A DNA stretch of 64,000 nt from an uncultured Bacilli bacterium (GCA_947624175.1 CANQJD010000001.1:1897-65896); one strand, 5' to 3'. Positions 3,211-59,585 are shown, numbered from the stretch's first letter. The notes: generated from the sequence alone by a model not told the origin. A program made the numbers and translations.

Positions 3211-6200
3211 CTACTGATTAGCAGTATTTTCATTCAATAAATCAATTAAGTAATAAACAGGATGTTTTTTCAAATTTCGAAGTTTTAAAGAAATATGTAA
3301 TCTTAAATTATGATAACTAAAGTTAAAGTCTCTTGAAATATCATAAGCCCTCATGAATAATTCTTCTCCATTAATAGTTTTTGATTTATCAATTGAGAAA
3401 ATAAGTTCGATACTATCTTTATTAGATATAACTTCTTCAACACCTTTAGATTTAGCAAGTTTTTCAAACCATTCTTGGTACATATAAGTTAATATTTCTT
3501 CACTTGGAGTACCAAATCTATCAGTAAATTCTTCTTTAACACTTACTAACTTCTCATAGCTATCAATCGTGTTAATAAGTTTATGAATTTCAATTTTTAA
3601 GTCACTTTCTTTAGCATATTTATCATCAATATGAGTTGAAACATTGATAAGTGGCTTTTCTTCTTTAACTTCATCTTCAATAGTTTCTTGTCCTTGTAAA
3701 TGTTTAATCTCATCATTTAAAATCTTTAAGTATAAATCAATTCCCATGGTATCAATGAAACCGGCTTGTTCACTTCCTAAAATATCCCCAGCCCCACGAA
3801 TTGATAAGTCCCGACTAGCAATGGCATAACCACTTCCAAGTTCCGTGAACTCCTTTAAAACATTAAGTCTTTTTATGGCTGCTTCTCCTAAAACTTTATG
3901 TTCTTGGTACATTAAATAAGCATAAGCAACTTTATTACTTCTTCCAACTCGTCCTCGTATTTGATATAATTGAGCAAGTCCAAATCTATCAGCATCTAAA
4001 ACGATTAAAGTATTAGCATTAGCAATATCAATTCCAGTTTCAATAATAGTTGTTGATAATAAAATATCATATTCATGATTAATAAACTTTAACATTCGAT
4101 TTTCAAGTTCTATCTTTGATAACTGTCCATGAGCTATAACAATTCTCGCATTTGGAACTAATTTTTGAATTTCAATCATTTTATTTTCAATTGTTTCAAC
4201 CCGATTATATAAAATAAATACTTGTCCATCTCGCATTAATTCTTTATTAATTGCATCTTGAATTAATTGGTCTTGTTCATAGACAACATAAGTTTGAATT
4301 GGAAAACGGTTAACAGGTGGTGTTTTAATAACTGATAAAGACCTAATTCCAACAACTGACATTTGTAAAGTTCTTGGAATTGGGGTTGCTGTTAGAGTTA
4401 AAACATCAACATTCGCTTTATATTGTTTTAATTTTTCTTTATGAGCAACTCCAAATCTCTGTTCTTCATCAATGATTAATAATCCTAAATCTTTAGGTTT
4501 TATATCATCACTTAATAATCTATGCGTTCCAATTACAATATCAACTTCTCCATTTTTAAGTTTATTTATTATTTCATTAACTTTCTTGCTAGTTGTAAAT
4601 CTATTCAAAAGTTCTATATTAACTGGAAAATTTTTAAATCTTTCAAGAGCATTTTGATACTGTTGATTAGAAAGAATCGTGGTTGGACATAAGTAAAGGA
4701 CTTGTTTACCATCATAAACCGCCTTGAACATAGCCCGAAAAGCAACTTCTGTTTTACCAAACCCAACATCACCACATAATAACCTATCCATTGGCTTGTC
4801 TTTTTCCATATCTCTTTTAATTTCTTCATAGGCTGTTAATTGGTCAAGAGTTGGCTCATACATAAATTCATTATAAAATTCTTCATGATACTTGGTATCT
4901 TTTGAAAATGCAAAACCTTTTTGCATTTCTCTTTCTGCATATAATCTAATTAATTTATCAGCAATATCTCTGACTTTACTAATAATTCTTTGTTTATTCT
5001 TTCGCCATTCACTGCTACCTAACCCATTTATTTTAGGTGTTACTCCTTCTCTTCCTGAATATTTACTAATTAAATCAATTTTTTCAACTGGAATATAAAG
5101 TTTATCATCACCTTTATAAAGGATTTCTAAAAAATCTTTCTTTAAAGAATTAACAGTTAAAGTCTTAATACCATTATAAATACCTATACCATTGATACTA
5201 TGAACTATATAATCTCCTACTTCTAATTTGTTGATGTTATTAATCTTCGTTGCATACTTAAACTTCGTTTTATATTTCTTTTTAGTAGGACTAACATTAA
5301 ATAAATCTTTATCAGTTAAAACAACAATATCTTGATAAACAAAACCTTTTGGGAAATCAAAGATAATAATATTTACAATATGGTCTTTTAAATCATTAAT
5401 CGAAGTTTTTACATATGGAACTTCTAGGTATTTTATAAAATTTCTAACTTGATAATCTTTTAAACAAACAACTATTTTTTTATTAGTTCCTAGCATATCT
5501 CTTAAATAGGTATTAATAATATCTATATTTTCATGGAATTTAGGAGCGGTTTTAATATTAAAATTTTGATAACTTGCAAATTCATGATTTGGAATTAAGT
5601 TATCTATACTTAAATAATGTAAGACTTTATCTTTATTGATAATTGAAATTGGAAACATATAGTCTCCATGATAATCAAGGTCATTTTCCTTATAAGTTTT
5701 AATTTCAGTTTGCATTTTATCATAAAGATTTACAAGCATCGTATAATCTTTCACGATGATAAGTGGATTATCTAAATAATCTGCAATATTTTTAGTATCA
5801 TTTAAGTATTCTTTTAAATACTTTTGTTTTCTTTTAGTCTCTTCTAATTTTGAATAATCTTGAAGTAAAAATTCGGTATATGGATAAATAGTTATTTCTT
5901 TAATTTCAGAGATAGATTTTTGAGTTTCTTCATCAAATATTCTAATTGAATCTATCTCATCTCCAAAGAATTCAAAGCGAACTGGATGATTAGATGAAAC
6001 GGGAAATATATCAATTATGAAACCTCGAATGCCGAGTTCACCTGTTGTTGTAACTAGGGTTTCTCGTTTATAACCAAGATTATAAAAATGTTCGGTTAAG
6101 TCTTTAGGATCAATCTCCATCCCTACTTTTAAATTTAAAATATTCTTCCTATAAACACTTTTACTAGGTAAATATCTTAAATACCCCATCATATGGGTAA

Positions 6201-56094: not shown

Positions 56095-56242
56095 TTGCAA
56101 TACAATAAAAAATATGATAATATGAATACATGAAGAAAAACTTCATAAAATAAAAAAGGATATACCTAATTGTCACAAGTTAGGTACTATTCCAGGTTTT
56201 GGAAGCACACCAACGATAGACAAACGTTAGTGTGCTGTTTTA
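56095..56242 (+). ncRNA. candidate antitoxin sRNA with its promoter (type I TA)
   Basis: TTGCAA (56095-56100), 17-nt spacer, TAATAT (56118-56123). The predicted transcript runs from about 56130 to the hairpin agcacac..aacg/cgtt..gtgtgct plus TTTT (about 56203-56242). It is fully antisense to the 3' UTR of the toxin mRNA. The ends are inferred. Confidence 0.4.
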
Positions 56243-56338
56243 CTAGCTAACTAGCAAAATTGCTAGTACTAGTTCTAGGGCAAAAATCCCTAGAAGTAGT
56301 AATGATACTACTTGAAAAAAGAATTCTCTTTTAAACAT
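56243..56338 (-). CDS. candidate type I toxin: 31-aa hydrophobic peptide
   Basis: Hand translation gives MFKREFFFQVVSLLLLGIFALELVLAILLVS, stop TAG. A GGAGGTGG RBS lies 4 nt upstream. Absent from the ORF track because it is under 60 aa. Confidence 0.55.
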   Translation of the reverse strand: MFKREFFFQVVSLLLLGIFALELVLAILLVS

Positions 56339-56443
56339 AGTACCACCTCCTTTAAATAGATTTTTAAACTGTACTAAACAACTTGAATTAAAATTGTCTA
56401 TATAAAGGAACAGCACCTAACGAATTAGGTATATCCATTTATA

Positions 56444-56472
56444 ATTATAAATTAATGAGATATTAAAGTCAA
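56444..56472 (-). promoter_or_regulatory. near-consensus sigma-A promoter for the toxin mRNA
   Basis: The minus strand reads TTGACT, 17-nt spacer, TATAAT. This predicts a start about 7 nt downstream, at GGATATACC (56436). Confidence 0.55.
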
Positions 56473-56634
56473 TAAATTTAAGATAATTATTTTAATAAAA
56501 TTACTAAAATTGTATCATTGAAATAATTTCCTTATGCATGATTGTGAATAGTAATTTAATTATTCATAAGGAAATATAGCTTAAAATCAAAAAAATGCTT
56601 GCAAAAAAAAGATATTTATGGTTAAATATGTGTA

Positions 56635-56819
56635 TCAATTATTTAAAGAAGTAGTAATATCTATTCTTTTTGAAGAGAGTTAGTGGTTGGTGCAAACTAA
56701 TAAAAGAGTATTTATGAACTTGTCTTTTAGAAAATAATTCGTTAATCGCGTTAAGATAATTAAGTAAATTAAGGATGGTACCGTGCTTTGCACTCCTTTG
56801 GTATCATTCTTTTATTTTT
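56635..56819 (+). promoter_or_regulatory. T-box riboswitch leader (candidate Leu/CUU specifier) with terminator
   Basis: AGAGAG...GGTGCAA stem I elements and a candidate CUU specifier at 56719-56721. The T-box motif is AAGGATGGTACCGTG (56771-56785). The terminator arms ggatggtacc and ggtatcattc are followed by ttttattttt. Confidence 0.75.
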
Positions 56820-56830
56820 AGGAGGTGTTG

Positions 56831-57205
56831 ATGAAGCTTACCGATTTATATTGGTTTTTAGGAACTTTTGTGGTGGTTTACCTACTCTATTTCTTTTTTC
56901 AGGTAATTAGAAAGAAGAAAATGGATAAAAAAAGAGTTCCTGTTGAACTCTTGTTGCTTATTAAAAAGTATAAATTAGATATAGATAAGATAAATTATCG
57001 GAGTATTATGAATAAAATTGCTTTAGTAAGTGCATTTGATATAGCCTTTATTGCAGTATTTGTAATGAAATTTATCGATAATATATACTTATCAATTATA
57101 GTTGGAGGAGTTTTATTTATACCTCTTATCTTAATAACTTATAATTTTATAGGAAAGTACTATGTACGGAAAGGATTGATTACAAATGGAAACAAAGAAA
57201 ATTGA
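56831..57205 (+). CDS. small membrane protein, first gene of the T-box-controlled leuS operon
   Basis: Three hydrophobic segments. A GGAGG RBS lies at 56821-56825. The 3' end overlaps the leuS start by 20 nt. Confidence 0.55.
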   Translation: MKLTDLYWFLGTFVVVYLLYFFFQVIRKKKMDKKRVPVELLLLIKKYKLDIDKINYRSIMNKIALVSAFDIAFIAVFVMKFIDNIYLSIIVGGVLFIPLILITYNFIGKYYVRKGLITNGNKEN

Positions 57206-59585
57206 AGCAAAATGGCAAAAGTATTGGAAAAAGAATCATACTTTTGAAGCTAAGAATAATAGTACAAAGGAGAAATACTATGTTTTAGTAGAATTTCCTT
57301 ATCCAAGTGGAGCTGGTCTTCATGTTGGACATGTAAGAAGTTATGCATCTCTTGATGCCGTTGCAAGAAAAAAAAGGATGGAAGGATATAATGTTTTATT
57401 TCCAATGGGTTGGGATGCTTTTGGATTGCCAGCTGAAGAGTATGCTATAAAAAATCATGTTCATCCAAGTGTTGCAGTCAAAGAGAATATTAAAACTTTT
57501 AAAGGACAACTTGAAAGTTTAGGTTTATCATTTGATTGGAGTCGTGAGTTTGCAACAACGGATCCTGAATATTATAAATGGACTCAGTGGCAATTTTTAA
57601 AATTCTATGAAGCAGGACTTGCTTATAAAGATAAGAAAACTATTAACTGGTGTCCTAATTGTAAAATAGGTCTTGCTAATGAAGAAGTTGAAGGCGGTTG
57701 CTGTGAAAGATGTGGAGGTCCTATCGTTCATCGTGAAAAAGAACAATGGATGCTTGGTATGAAAGAATATGCCGAAAGACTTCTTGATGGACTTGCTGAT
57801 ACTGAGTTCCAAGAGAAAACCAAACTTGCTCAAATTAATTGGATAGGTAAATCAACGGGTGCTGAAATTGACTTTGCAATCGATGATACAGATGAAAAAT
57901 TAAAAGTTTATACAACTCGTCCTGATACAATCTTTGGAGTTACCTTCATGGTAATTGCTCCTGAACATCCAATTTTAAAGAAATTAGAAGCAAGAATTTT
58001 AAATATGGATGAAATTAAAGAATATCAAGAATTTGCTAGTCATAAAAGTGAAATGGAAAGAACACAACTTAATAAAGATAAAACGGGAGTTAAGATTTTA
58101 GGTTTTTATGCTATTAATCCAGTTACTAAAGATAAAATACCAGTTTATATCTCAGATTATGTTATGATGAACTATGGAACAGGTGCGATTATGGCAGTTC
58201 CTGCTCATGATGAAAGAGACTTTGAGTTTGCTCATAAATTCTCTATTCCAATAATTGAAGTTATTAAAGGTGGAAACATTAAAGAAGAAGCCTATGTTGG
58301 AGATGGAGAAATGATTAATTCCGGATTCTTGAATGGCATTACAACCAAAGAAGAAGCCATCAAGAAAATGCTTGATTATTTAGAACAAGAAGGTTTAGGT
58401 CATGCAGCCGTTAAATATCGTCTTCAAGATTGGGTTTTCTCCCGTCAAAGATTTTGGGGTGAACCAATTCCAATGATTAAATGTCCAACTTGTGGTTGGG
58501 TTCCCGTTCCTTATGAAGATTTACCAGTTAAACTTCCAAATGTTGCATCTTATGAACCAACCGAAAATGGAGAAAGTCCCCTTGCCTCTATTCCAGAGTT
58601 CGTGAATACGACTTGTCCAAAATGTGGTGGTCCTGCTAAACGTGAGACTGATACAATGCCTAACTGGGCTGGATCTTCATGGTATTGGCTACGTTATATG
58701 GATCCTCATAACGACAAAGAATTCGTTTCAAGAGAAGCTTTAGATTACTTCGGTCAAGTTGATTGGTATAATGGTGGTATGGAACATGCAACCAGACACT
58801 TACTTTATGCAAGATTTTGGAATAACTTTCTATACGATCAAGGATTAGTACCAAATAAAGAACCATTTAAAATTCGGACCAGTCATGGAATGATACTTGG
58901 GGCTAATGGTGAGAAGATGAGTAAATCAAAAGGAAATGTTATTAATCCTAATGATTGCATAGATGAATATGGTGCTGATGCTTTAAGAGTTTATGAAATG
59001 TTTATTGGAGACTATGAAAAAGAAGTTAATTGGAATACTAATAGTTTAAATGGTTGTAAGAAATTCCTTGATCGAGTTGAAAGAATTGCTAGTAAATTAA
59101 ATAGTAAGATAACTTATACAGAAAGTTTAGAAGTTTTAATCAATAAAACAATTAAGAAAGTAACCGAAGATTTAGATAATTTAAAATTTAATACGGCTAT
59201 TTCAAGTTTAATGATTTTATTAAATGAAATGGAAAAATTAGAAAAAATAACCAAAAAAGATTATCGAACTTTATTACTACTTCTTAATCCAATGGCACCT
59301 CATATCACGGAAGAACTAAACGAAAAATACGAATTAGGTGCTCATCTATGTGAATCTAAATGGCCAAAATATGACCCTGAAAAATTAATTGATGATACAG
59401 TTACGATTGCTATTCAAGTAAATGGTAAACTTCGAGGAACAATTGAAGTTCCAACTGATTCAACTGAAAATAAAATTCAAAAATTAGCTTTAGAAAACGA
59501 AAATGTTCAAAAACATGTTGATGGCAAAGAAATAGTTAAAGTAATTGTTATCAAAAATAAGATAGTTAATATTGTTGTAAGATAA
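57186..59585 (+). CDS. leuS: leucyl-tRNA synthetase
   Basis: HVGH (HIGH-type) and KMSKS motifs, the CP1 editing domain and zinc-binding cysteines. Confidence 0.96.
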   Translation: METKKIEAKWQKYWKKNHTFEAKNNSTKEKYYVLVEFPYPSGAGLHVGHVRSYASLDAVARKKRMEGYNVLFPMGWDAFGLPAEEYAIKNHVHPSVAVKENIKTFKGQLESLGLSFDWSREFATTDPEYYKWTQWQFLKFYEAGLAYKDKKTINWCPNCKIGLANEEVEGGCCERCGGPIVHREKEQWMLGMKEYAERLLDGLADTEFQEKTKLAQINWIGKSTGAEIDFAIDDTDEKLKVYTTRPDTIFGVTFMVIAPEHPILKKLEARILNMDEIKEYQEFASHKSEMERTQLNKDKTGVKILGFYAINPVTKDKIPVYISDYVMMNYGTGAIMAVPAHDERDFEFAHKFSIPIIEVIKGGNIKEEAYVGDGEMINSGFLNGITTKEEAIKKMLDYLEQEGLGHAAVKYRLQDWVFSRQRFWGEPIPMIKCPTCGWVPVPYEDLPVKLPNVASYEPTENGESPLASIPEFVNTTCPKCGGPAKRETDTMPNWAGSSWYWLRYMDPHNDKEFVSREALDYFGQVDWYNGGMEHATRHLLYARFWNNFLYDQGLVPNKEPFKIRTSHGMILGANGEKMSKSKGNVINPNDCIDEYGADALRVYEMFIGDYEKEVNWNTNSLNGCKKFLDRVERIASKLNSKITYTESLEVLINKTIKKVTEDLDNLKFNTAISSLMILLNEMEKLEKITKKDYRTLLLLLNPMAPHITEELNEKYELGAHLCESKWPKYDPEKLIDDTVTIAIQVNGKLRGTIEVPTDSTENKIQKLALENENVQKHVDGKEIVKVIVIKNKIVNIVVR

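Follow-up and report, generated by a model that had tools for sequence, protein, structure and literature searches.

A candidate type I toxin-antitoxin-like module in an uncultured Bacilli bacterium and its multi-copy family in gut genomes

We find that a locus at positions 56095-56472 of a 64,000-nucleotide stretch of DNA from an uncultured Bacilli bacterium (GCA_947624175.1, CANQJD010000001.1:1897-65896; the whole stretch is called the window here) is probably a type I toxin-antitoxin (TA)-like module, in which a minus-strand mRNA for a short hydrophobic peptide converges with a plus-strand antisense RNA. An earlier reading, made from the sequence alone, had proposed a type I TA system at this site, and our analysis supports it, with the predicted elements conserved in 34 intact homologous loci. 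That this conservation reflects function is indicated by purifying selection on the open reading frame (ORF), compensatory and wobble changes in a long-range helix between the two ends of the mRNA, covariation in a terminator, and a sequestered Shine-Dalgarno (SD) sequence.

The peptide gene and its homologues

The sequence-only reading had placed a strong ribosome-binding site and a hydrophobic ORF of 31 codons on the minus strand; both are present, and ORF and SD are kept in the homologues. The ORF (56243-56338, minus strand, 31 codons plus stop) runs from an ATG at 56338 to a TAG at 56245-56243 and encodes MFKREFFFQVVSLLLLGIFALELVLAILLVS, a peptide predicted to consist of a short charged N-terminus followed by one membrane-spanning hydrophobic helix. 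Its SD, AAAGGAGGTGG (equivalently AAAGGAGGUGG), lies at 56343-56353 on the same strand. With an mRNA of about 290 nucleotides (nt) and a product of 31 amino acids (aa), the gene has the dimensions general to type I TA systems, whose mRNAs measure 150-400 nt and encode hydrophobic proteins of 20-60 aa. Across the family, ORFs of 21-31 codons with a strong SD lie opposite nearly every antisense copy. Their peptides, exemplified by MTLREFFLHVVILLLVVLLYIMYLHQ, MTGRELFLNVIILGLIIIIVLLLLR, MLKKEFFFQLVLILQLVIILILALATLGG, MTHKEMNFLRVVVVLLFAVVFALIFFN, MRVREFSLFIVIYVLLIIVIILLLR and MKFREIFYFIIIMFLLIIILIKV, share an N-terminal M-x-x-[KR]-E-[FLI]-F and continue with about 20 hydrophobic residues; identity between subfamilies drops to about 50% or below.

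Judged by its substitutions, the family ORF evolves as a protein-coding gene under purifying selection. Differences summed over codon positions 1, 2 and 3 amount to 185, 64 and 268, and in most subfamilies the nonsynonymous rate (dN) is 0.02-0.25 and the synonymous rate (dS) 0.2-0.9, with dN/dS mostly about 0.05-0.3. The peptide had not been recognised as belonging to a known toxin family, and this was borne out by the protein libraries: 11 family peptides had no match in Pfam or NCBIfam at E up to 10, a phmmer search of the 31-aa peptide against 1.8 billion representative proteins returned 0 matches, and exact-sequence look-ups of this peptide and of a 57-aa extended ORF gave no record. As a protein-search query, the 57-aa extended ORF found a single homologue, P0001, on a 579-nt metagenome contig (L001). 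Gene callers miss the ORF or annotate a 57-aa protein started at GTG (window 56243-56416, minus strand; L005 1301-1474; P0001). This 57-aa database 'protein' is a mis-call, because its extra 26 codons are conserved 5' untranslated region (UTR) that includes the SD.

By sequence comparison, the window locus is not a singleton and is instead one member of a large multi-copy family. A search for the peptide and its flanking structure in related genomes, recommended in the sequence-only reading, recovered the 34 intact loci from at least 5 metagenome-assembled genomes (MAGs), and all 34 keep the same layout of promoter, 5' element, anti-SD, SD, ORF, two 3' hairpins and antisense RNA. Scanning one genome per species (GTDB representatives) with the pattern GATATACCTAAN{4,12}TTAGGTRCT gave 45 loci, about 35 of them carrying the same module. 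The hosts are four rabbit-gut MAGs labelled 'uncultured Bacilli', a rumen Erysipelotrichaceae MAG and one further MAG; family copies were recovered solely from gut MAGs (rabbit, rumen and other guts), and the window's species is itself present in rabbit-gut metagenomes. An nhmmer search with the antisense alignment found about 50 copies in the fetched DNA, including the window species' own contigs, and the resulting 7-14 copies per MAG are a lower bound. The window holds exactly one copy by nhmmer (E = 2.4e-34), and tblastn, blastn and nhmmer found no second copy there. Nothing was matched when genomes were scanned with patterns back-translated from the 57-aa alignment, or viral contigs with the 5' element. 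One full family copy (L037) lies in a MAG labelled Muribaculaceae (Bacteroidota), on a contig with a run of N, and this label is probably a binning or scaffolding error and not the true host.

The L001 contig is 88% identical to the window locus at the DNA level, with promoter and 5' UTR almost unchanged and about 13 changes in the ORF, whose resulting amino-acid changes are all conservative. Elsewhere the family shows abundant decay. Two copies have frameshifted toxins (L014, L029), orphan antisense genes stand beside toxin remnants (L016 5561-5645; L017 6529-6668; L035 379-520 and 629-768; L044 2006-2143), and others have no toxin ORF left (L026 3530-3670; L030 1302-1440; L042 333-472). Such decayed copies are typical of TA families. 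Tandem pairs of copies are common, and the flanking genes are ordinary core genes, encoding or named lepA, uvrC, rpoC, phosphoketolase, catalase and a UvrD-like helicase; one copy adjoins a TnpB/IS605 OrfB gene. There is no synteny between copies, and the proteins flanking the window locus are absent beside the other copies.

Promoters, mRNA fold and antisense RNA

On its promoter sequence, the predicted toxin mRNA is driven by a sigma-70-type promoter. TTGACT-17-TATAAT lies at 56472-56444 on the minus strand, just where it had been predicted; it matches 11 of 12 consensus positions and is the top promoter match in the 1.8 kb scanned (the G+C content of the window is 27%), and most homologues have TTGAC-17-TATAAT at the equivalent position. 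The proposed mRNA start at 56436 also holds: it is a G, 7 nt past the -10, it gives a leader of 98 nt, and sequence conservation in the family begins at the equivalent G. From this base the predicted mRNA of about 290 nt extends to the end of a T-run (56147-56436, minus strand). Further upstream, AATGATACAAT at 56511-56521 of the window resembles a second extended -10. Ahead of the toxin promoter, some subfamilies also have motifs of their own, at about -90 and -75 from the toxin transcription start site (TSS), namely TGTATCA[CT][AG]GTTAC in 9 loci and ATTGCAATTATGATAA in L028, L036, L037 and L040.

Folding the mRNA of about 290 nt, which the sequence-only reading had advised, gave -108.4 kcal/mol against -56.0 ± 4.5 for dinucleotide shuffles (z = -11.6), a stability reached by 0 of 200 shuffles. 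In this fold, the first 27 nt or so of the mRNA pair with approximately its last 35 nt. The 5' element GGAUAUACCUAAUUCGUUAGGUGCUGUUCC (56407-56436, minus strand) provides the 5' strands of two long-range helices: P1 joins 56436-56424 with 56170-56158 (mRNA nt 1-13 with 267-279), and P2 joins 56421-56410 with 56190-56179 (nt 16-27 with 247-258). Their 3' strands belong to a 3' element at 56158-56193 (minus strand) that doubles as the mRNA terminator hairpin (GGAAUAGUACCUAAC-loop-AAUUAGGUAUAUCC), followed by the T-run at 56147-56157, and the 3' partners of P1 and P2 are thus both arms of the mRNA's own terminator hairpin. At the DNA level, the two elements form an inverted repeat (14 bp perfect; 24 bp at 88%) bounding about 250 bp. 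Of the two long-range pairings originally proposed, that between 56423-56436 and 56158-56171 is complementary at 14 of 14 positions, with 13 paired in the minimum-free-energy fold. The other was only partly upheld: the complementarity of 56409-56422 to 56225-56239 exists (-20.1 kcal/mol) but is weaker than that to 56179-56190 (-24.0), and the latter partner is the stronger one in 33 of 34 family members (means -22.1 versus -15.1).

The same 5'-3' interaction appears in the minimum-free-energy fold of 34 of 34 family mRNAs, whose z values range from -5.8 to -15.3 (mean -9.0). We counted pairing in P1 and P2 on an alignment of the 5' and 3' ends of the 34 intact members (A4). Here, 95.4% of 972 cells are paired, and 26 cells in 6 pairs are altered on both sides (among them AAUCC/GGAUU, GUUCC/GGAAU and AGUCC/GGACU). 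None of 500 column shuffles reached these values for pairing and compensation, and sliding the partner by 1-3 columns as a control left 32-44% paired. All 29 of the 29 one-sided changes in P1 are A-to-G or C-to-U and give G-U pairs; since the same changes would be C-A mismatches on the other strand, the constraint on P1 acts on the toxin mRNA.

Directly after P2, an anti-SD (UCCUUUA.AUAGA, 56397-56409, minus strand) pairs with 56348-56360 (UCUAU.UAAAGGA), and codons 10-13 pair with GGUGGUACUAU, which comprises the remainder of the SD together with the AUG; in the predicted fold the SD is fully base-paired. Averaged over the 34 members, the SD is paired with a probability of 0.83 and the start codon with one of 0.91. 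Anti-SD and SD context vary together, mostly as CCUUUAU/AUAAAGG and in the Lapin-017 subfamily as CUCCUAA/UUAGGAG. In these models, the mRNA is built for translational silence, with both SD and start codon buried in structure.

The convergent promoter proposed on the plus strand, TTGCAA-17-TAATAT, is found at the predicted place (56095-56123) with a conserved TG-extended -10 (TGATAATAT, 56115-56123; TG at 56115-56116), but it agrees with the consensus at only 8 of 12 positions, a score that keeps it off the list of a consensus scan. In an alignment of 35 homologues (A3), the -10 never varies at T1, A2 or T6, and the G of the TG hardly does; L001 has TTGATT as its -35 with the spacing unchanged. 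The predicted antisense RNA (56130-56242, plus strand, about 113 nt) starts just beyond the mRNA terminator and consists of hairpin H1 (56130-56146), an A-rich linker, hairpin H2 (56158-56193) and hairpin H3 (56204-56236) with a UUUU tail; its three-hairpin fold has z = -4.7. H3 serves the antisense RNA as its intrinsic terminator; on the opposite strand, the complement of H3 forms the mRNA hairpin just past the stop codon (H3'). The sequence-only reading had placed the end of this hairpin and its T-run exactly at the stop codon; the hairpin and the GTTTT that follows (56237-56241) end one base from it. The convergent RNA is fully complementary to the last 100 nt or so of the mRNA, making it antisense to the 3' UTR, as that reading had proposed. 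Base-pairing between antisense RNA and toxin mRNA, as expected of a type I system, is thus predicted both in silico and by comparison among homologues.

The hairpins of the antisense RNA differ in how they vary. H3 has 4 pairs with compensatory changes, and H1 covaries as AUGAAG/CUUCAU, AUCAAGG/CUUGAU and GCAAGC/GCUUGC. The H2 loop varies among paralogues of a single genome, with at least 9 loops in 12 copies of one MAG. Beyond the overlap, duplex energies of the antisense RNA with the 5' UTR and ORF were no better than those of shuffled antisense sequences (z about 0). At about 6700-6850 of L022, from the human-gut MAG HGM10817, we also noted a unit resembling a small RNA (sRNA), which has the same H1 hairpin (AUGAAG..CUUCAU) and a terminator made of a GGAUAUACCUAAC..GUUAGGUACU hairpin and a U-run. 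No peptide ORF converges on this unit, which may be a related sRNA standing by itself.

Two homologues are matched by contigs from RNA data. The transcriptomic run X24 has a contig of 228 nt with 96.5% identity to 3824-4051 of the L033 copy; the contig begins 2 nt past the predicted toxin TSS, spans 5' UTR and ORF, and stops where the H3' hairpin has its 3' foot, without the last 60 nt or so that form the 5'-3' lock. This contig could be a 3'-processed form of the mRNA or a coverage artefact. In a sheep-gut metatranscriptome, a 226-nt contig lies over the mRNA body of the L039 copy. Because both contigs are of low depth and unstranded, they are no more than suggestive of transcription. Comparing coverage of the TA locus with that of the neighbouring rpoC in the sheep metatranscriptome does not separate RNA from DNA and is uninformative, because rpoC gathers contigs from many organisms. 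Separately, many contigs from chicken and bovine gut metatranscriptomes (X25, X28, X31) match L033 at 4099-4155; the match is confined to the antisense -10 region, H1 and the A-rich linker, the contigs diverge where H2 begins, and some are very deep, with a summed word depth of up to about 5900. Other, highly expressed RNAs may have this promoter/H1 module in common with the family.

Proposed mechanism and alternative explanations

In the mechanism that we propose, the peptide, once made, would damage the membrane, and the antisense RNA would be the antitoxin, acting through the 3' overlap. Antisense RNA and mRNA would first touch at the complementary loops of H2 and the mRNA terminator, and since H2 loops differ between paralogues, this contact would confer pair specificity. 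The antisense RNA would then form a duplex of about 100 bp, displacing the mRNA 5' end from the 3' element; the displacement would expose both mRNA ends and create a substrate for RNase III, and the mRNA would be degraded. By analogy with txpA/RatA and bsrG/SR4, antisense binding would probably cost the mRNA its protective 5'-3' helix and lead to duplex-dependent decay. Without the antisense RNA, the locked mRNA would remain as a stable and inert reserve, and it could be translated only once processing or refolding had removed the anti-SD.

GGAUAUACCUAAUU with a GUUAGGU-type segment after it occurs in both the 5' end of the mRNA and the proposed antitoxin, and nhmmer weakly matches the mRNA 5' element to the antisense model at its H2 region (E = 3.7e-4). 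As a consequence of this resemblance, the mRNA 5' element and the antisense H2 segment should compete for the same 3' site. It is tempting to speculate, though we hold the idea only tentatively and think it rather doubtful, that the mRNA 5' end is a built-in antitoxin mimic, that the choice between self-pairing and antitoxin pairing sets storage or decay, and that the H2 loop acts as an address code. If so, the locked mRNA would be shielded from its own antitoxin and from exonucleases at both ends, and the hypervariable H2 loop would insulate 7-14 paralogous pairs from one another despite almost identical stems.

Several observations weigh against a TA module. 'Type I TA' is a class that we infer from architecture, because the toxicity of the peptide and the antisense control of the candidate module are both putative. 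The window's own locus was found in no RNA run, and the RNA contigs of the homologues are shallow (2.9-6.8x), unstranded and possibly derived from DNA. A simple terminator scan lists neither RNA's terminator, as one has a 9-nt loop and the other a bulged stem. When the 3' 100 nt of the mRNA were blocked in silico, SD pairing was unchanged, which offers no route to activation. The window's own 31-residue subfamily has dN equal to or above dS, with few changes to count there. Finally, the search pattern fixed the 3' element and the H2 stem, so that their invariance is partly a bias of recovery; the H2 stem is nonetheless almost unchanged in the Lapin-017 copies, which were recovered by way of the 5' element.

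Some features of the family would also suit a non-toxic small membrane protein, such as a regulatory or accessory subunit, whose expression is tuned by mRNA structure and a cis-antisense RNA and which has no part in a TA system. Purifying selection on the ORF is equally expected for a beneficial small protein, and the loci lie between core genes (lepA, uvrC, rpoC, phosphoketolase) and not in obvious mobile elements. However, 7-14 diverged, dispersed and often tandem copies per small genome, with frequent decayed copies and orphan antisense genes, would be unusual for accessory subunits, whereas type I TA families typically show them. No conserved neighbouring gene or synteny is seen. Outside the helix, the peptides offer almost no polar surface, and a multi-layer translational lock is typical of genes with harmful products. 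We therefore consider a non-toxic protein unlikely.

The plus-strand RNA invites a different explanation, in which it acts mainly in trans as an sRNA on other targets and its overlap with the peptide mRNA is secondary. This would account for an RNA much more conserved than the peptide, for orphan copies without a toxin gene and the L022 unit without a convergent ORF, and for the promoter/H1/linker module standing alone in very deep metatranscriptome contigs. Yet 34 loci combine the RNA with an intact peptide gene in one and the same geometry; the end of the RNA adjoins the stop codon in the window and lies a short way downstream of the stop elsewhere. It has no significant complementarity to the 5' UTR or ORF beyond the overlap, other targets not having been searched for. 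Altogether, a mainly trans-acting RNA seems very unlikely. We give still less credence, amounting to a slim chance, to a non-coding repeat of the repetitive extragenic palindrome (REP) or miniature inverted-repeat transposable element (MITE) type, with hairpins serving as terminators and an incidental ORF. Inverted repeats are indeed present, the 14-bp perfect repeat (24 bp at 88%) bounding about 250 bp, and the elements are multi-copy, dispersed and intergenic, one of them beside TnpB/IS605 OrfB. Nevertheless, the copies are diverged instead of near-identical and carry a coding-type ORF with the codon-position bias noted above (185/64/268) and dN/dS well below 1, while conservation extends beyond the inverted repeats to SD, start codon and both promoters, and the one-sided changes in the repeats are G-U wobbles, which make sense only for RNA of one strand. 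A type I TA-like module thus remains the explanation that we favour.

Outside the locus, the window contains a T-box leader at 56638-56800 (plus strand; E = 5e-15; 72.1 bits, below the Rfam gathering score of 93). It precedes an ORF for a hydrophobic protein of 126 aa (56825-57205), which overlaps the start of leuS (57186-59585) by 20 nt. Inside the 126-aa ORF, 56932-56952 is a perfect 8-bp palindromic hairpin with a minus-strand T-run, and this hairpin is overlapped by a chance-level fstAT match (E = 7.3) at 56850-56935.

Comparison with known systems

No antitoxin of Rfam 15 matched the window locus at E up to 10 or five other loci of the family at E up to 1. Among type I systems of Bacillus subtilis, txpA/RatA and bsrG/SR4 (with bsrE/SR5 and yonT/SR6) resemble the family in their low-GC Gram-positive hosts and hydrophobic peptides. 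In txpA/RatA and bsrG/SR4, the toxin mRNA is degraded via the duplex by RNase III, and the bsrG SD is partly sequestered. Bacillus systems of the txpA/bsrG type are found on prophage-like elements in single or few copies, unlike the 7-14 chromosomal copies between core genes described here, which also have a 27-bp 5'-3' lock. The txpA/RatA-type peptides are longer (38-59 aa) and unrelated in sequence, and no Rfam antitoxin or protein-family match places the locus with TxpA/RatA, BsrG/SR4, BsrE or YonT. As here, the antisense RNA of txpA/RatA and bsrG/SR4 is convergent on the 3' side with about 100 nt of 3' overlap, and in the txpA/RatA type it overlaps the ORF too (PMC8594479). The antisense RNA of the window, by contrast, stops one base short of the stop codon.

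In this respect, the closest organisation among Gram-positive families with a 3' overlap is that of Fst/RNA II (par, pAD1) and SprA1/SprA1as, in which the ORF is not overlapped. These systems are convergent, and their antisense RNA covers the 3' untranslated end only, as here (PMC7472228, PMC8594479). They also have complementary stem-loops in the terminator region for a kissing contact, of the kind available here, a stem-loop that hides the SD, and a helix that sequesters the extreme mRNA 5' end, again as in our family (PMC7472228, PMC8594479). The differences are nonetheless clear. None of the distinct family peptides recovered has the PXXXG(C) motif or the charged C-terminal tail that mark Fst/Ldr toxins. 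Where Fst has a shared bidirectional terminator, the terminators here are separate (H2' with its T-run for the mRNA, H3 with its T-run for the antisense RNA), and the DRa/DRb direct repeats that give Fst its 5' complementarity have no counterpart. Because the DNA repeat is inverted here, the two RNAs share sequence and not complement. With no antisense-to-5' complementarity above shuffled controls, we rejected an Fst-type mechanism.

The 5'-3' lock has its parallels in Gram-negative bacteria. In hok/Sok of plasmid R1, fold-back inhibition by 5'-3' pairing keeps the full-length mRNA inert with its SD sequestered, as predicted here (Franch et al. 1997, as cited in PMC8594479). Similarly, aapA1/IsoA1 of Helicobacter pylori has an inert mRNA fold with long-distance 5'-3' pairing and a sequestered SD (PMC6733600), and the H. 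pylori aapA1 family, like ours, is multi-copy and chromosomal. In both hok and aapA1, however, it is the 5' part of the mRNA that the antisense RNA targets, and only once the 3' end has been trimmed, whereas the antisense RNA here complements the very 3' segment used by the lock. The family has no mok-like leader ORF, and the peptides are unrelated. Beyond the 5'-3' pairing, nothing joins the locus to Hok/Sok: we found no Hok_Gef match and no overlapping leader ORF.

In peptide character, the family resembles Ibs/Sib and ShoB/OhsC of E. coli, whose peptides of 18-26 aa are almost entirely hydrophobic with few charges at the N-terminus, as are those described here. Ibs/Sib loci are likewise chromosomal and multi-copy, and variable antisense regions discriminate between their paralogues. 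The family has no sequence similarity to either of these systems, both from Gram-negative hosts. Their arrangement is also another one, with Sib RNAs covering the whole ibs ORF and OhsC lying 5' of shoB (PMC8594479).

We treat the locus as representing a new family, in which known elements occur in a new arrangement and which has no match in the libraries searched. It escapes Pfam, NCBIfam and Rfam, and its hosts are uncultured low-GC gut Bacilli of rabbits, ruminants and other animals. Its conserved 30-nt motif finds new copies directly and would improve the annotation of small genes in gut MAGs, and a family of this size, with clean and covariation-rich RNA features, could serve as a model for RNA-based regulation and for cross-talk among paralogous antisense RNAs. 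If the type I interpretation is right, the family would join two ideas known from separate systems, the 5'-3' lock of hok and aapA1 and the 3'-overlapping antitoxin of Bacillus.

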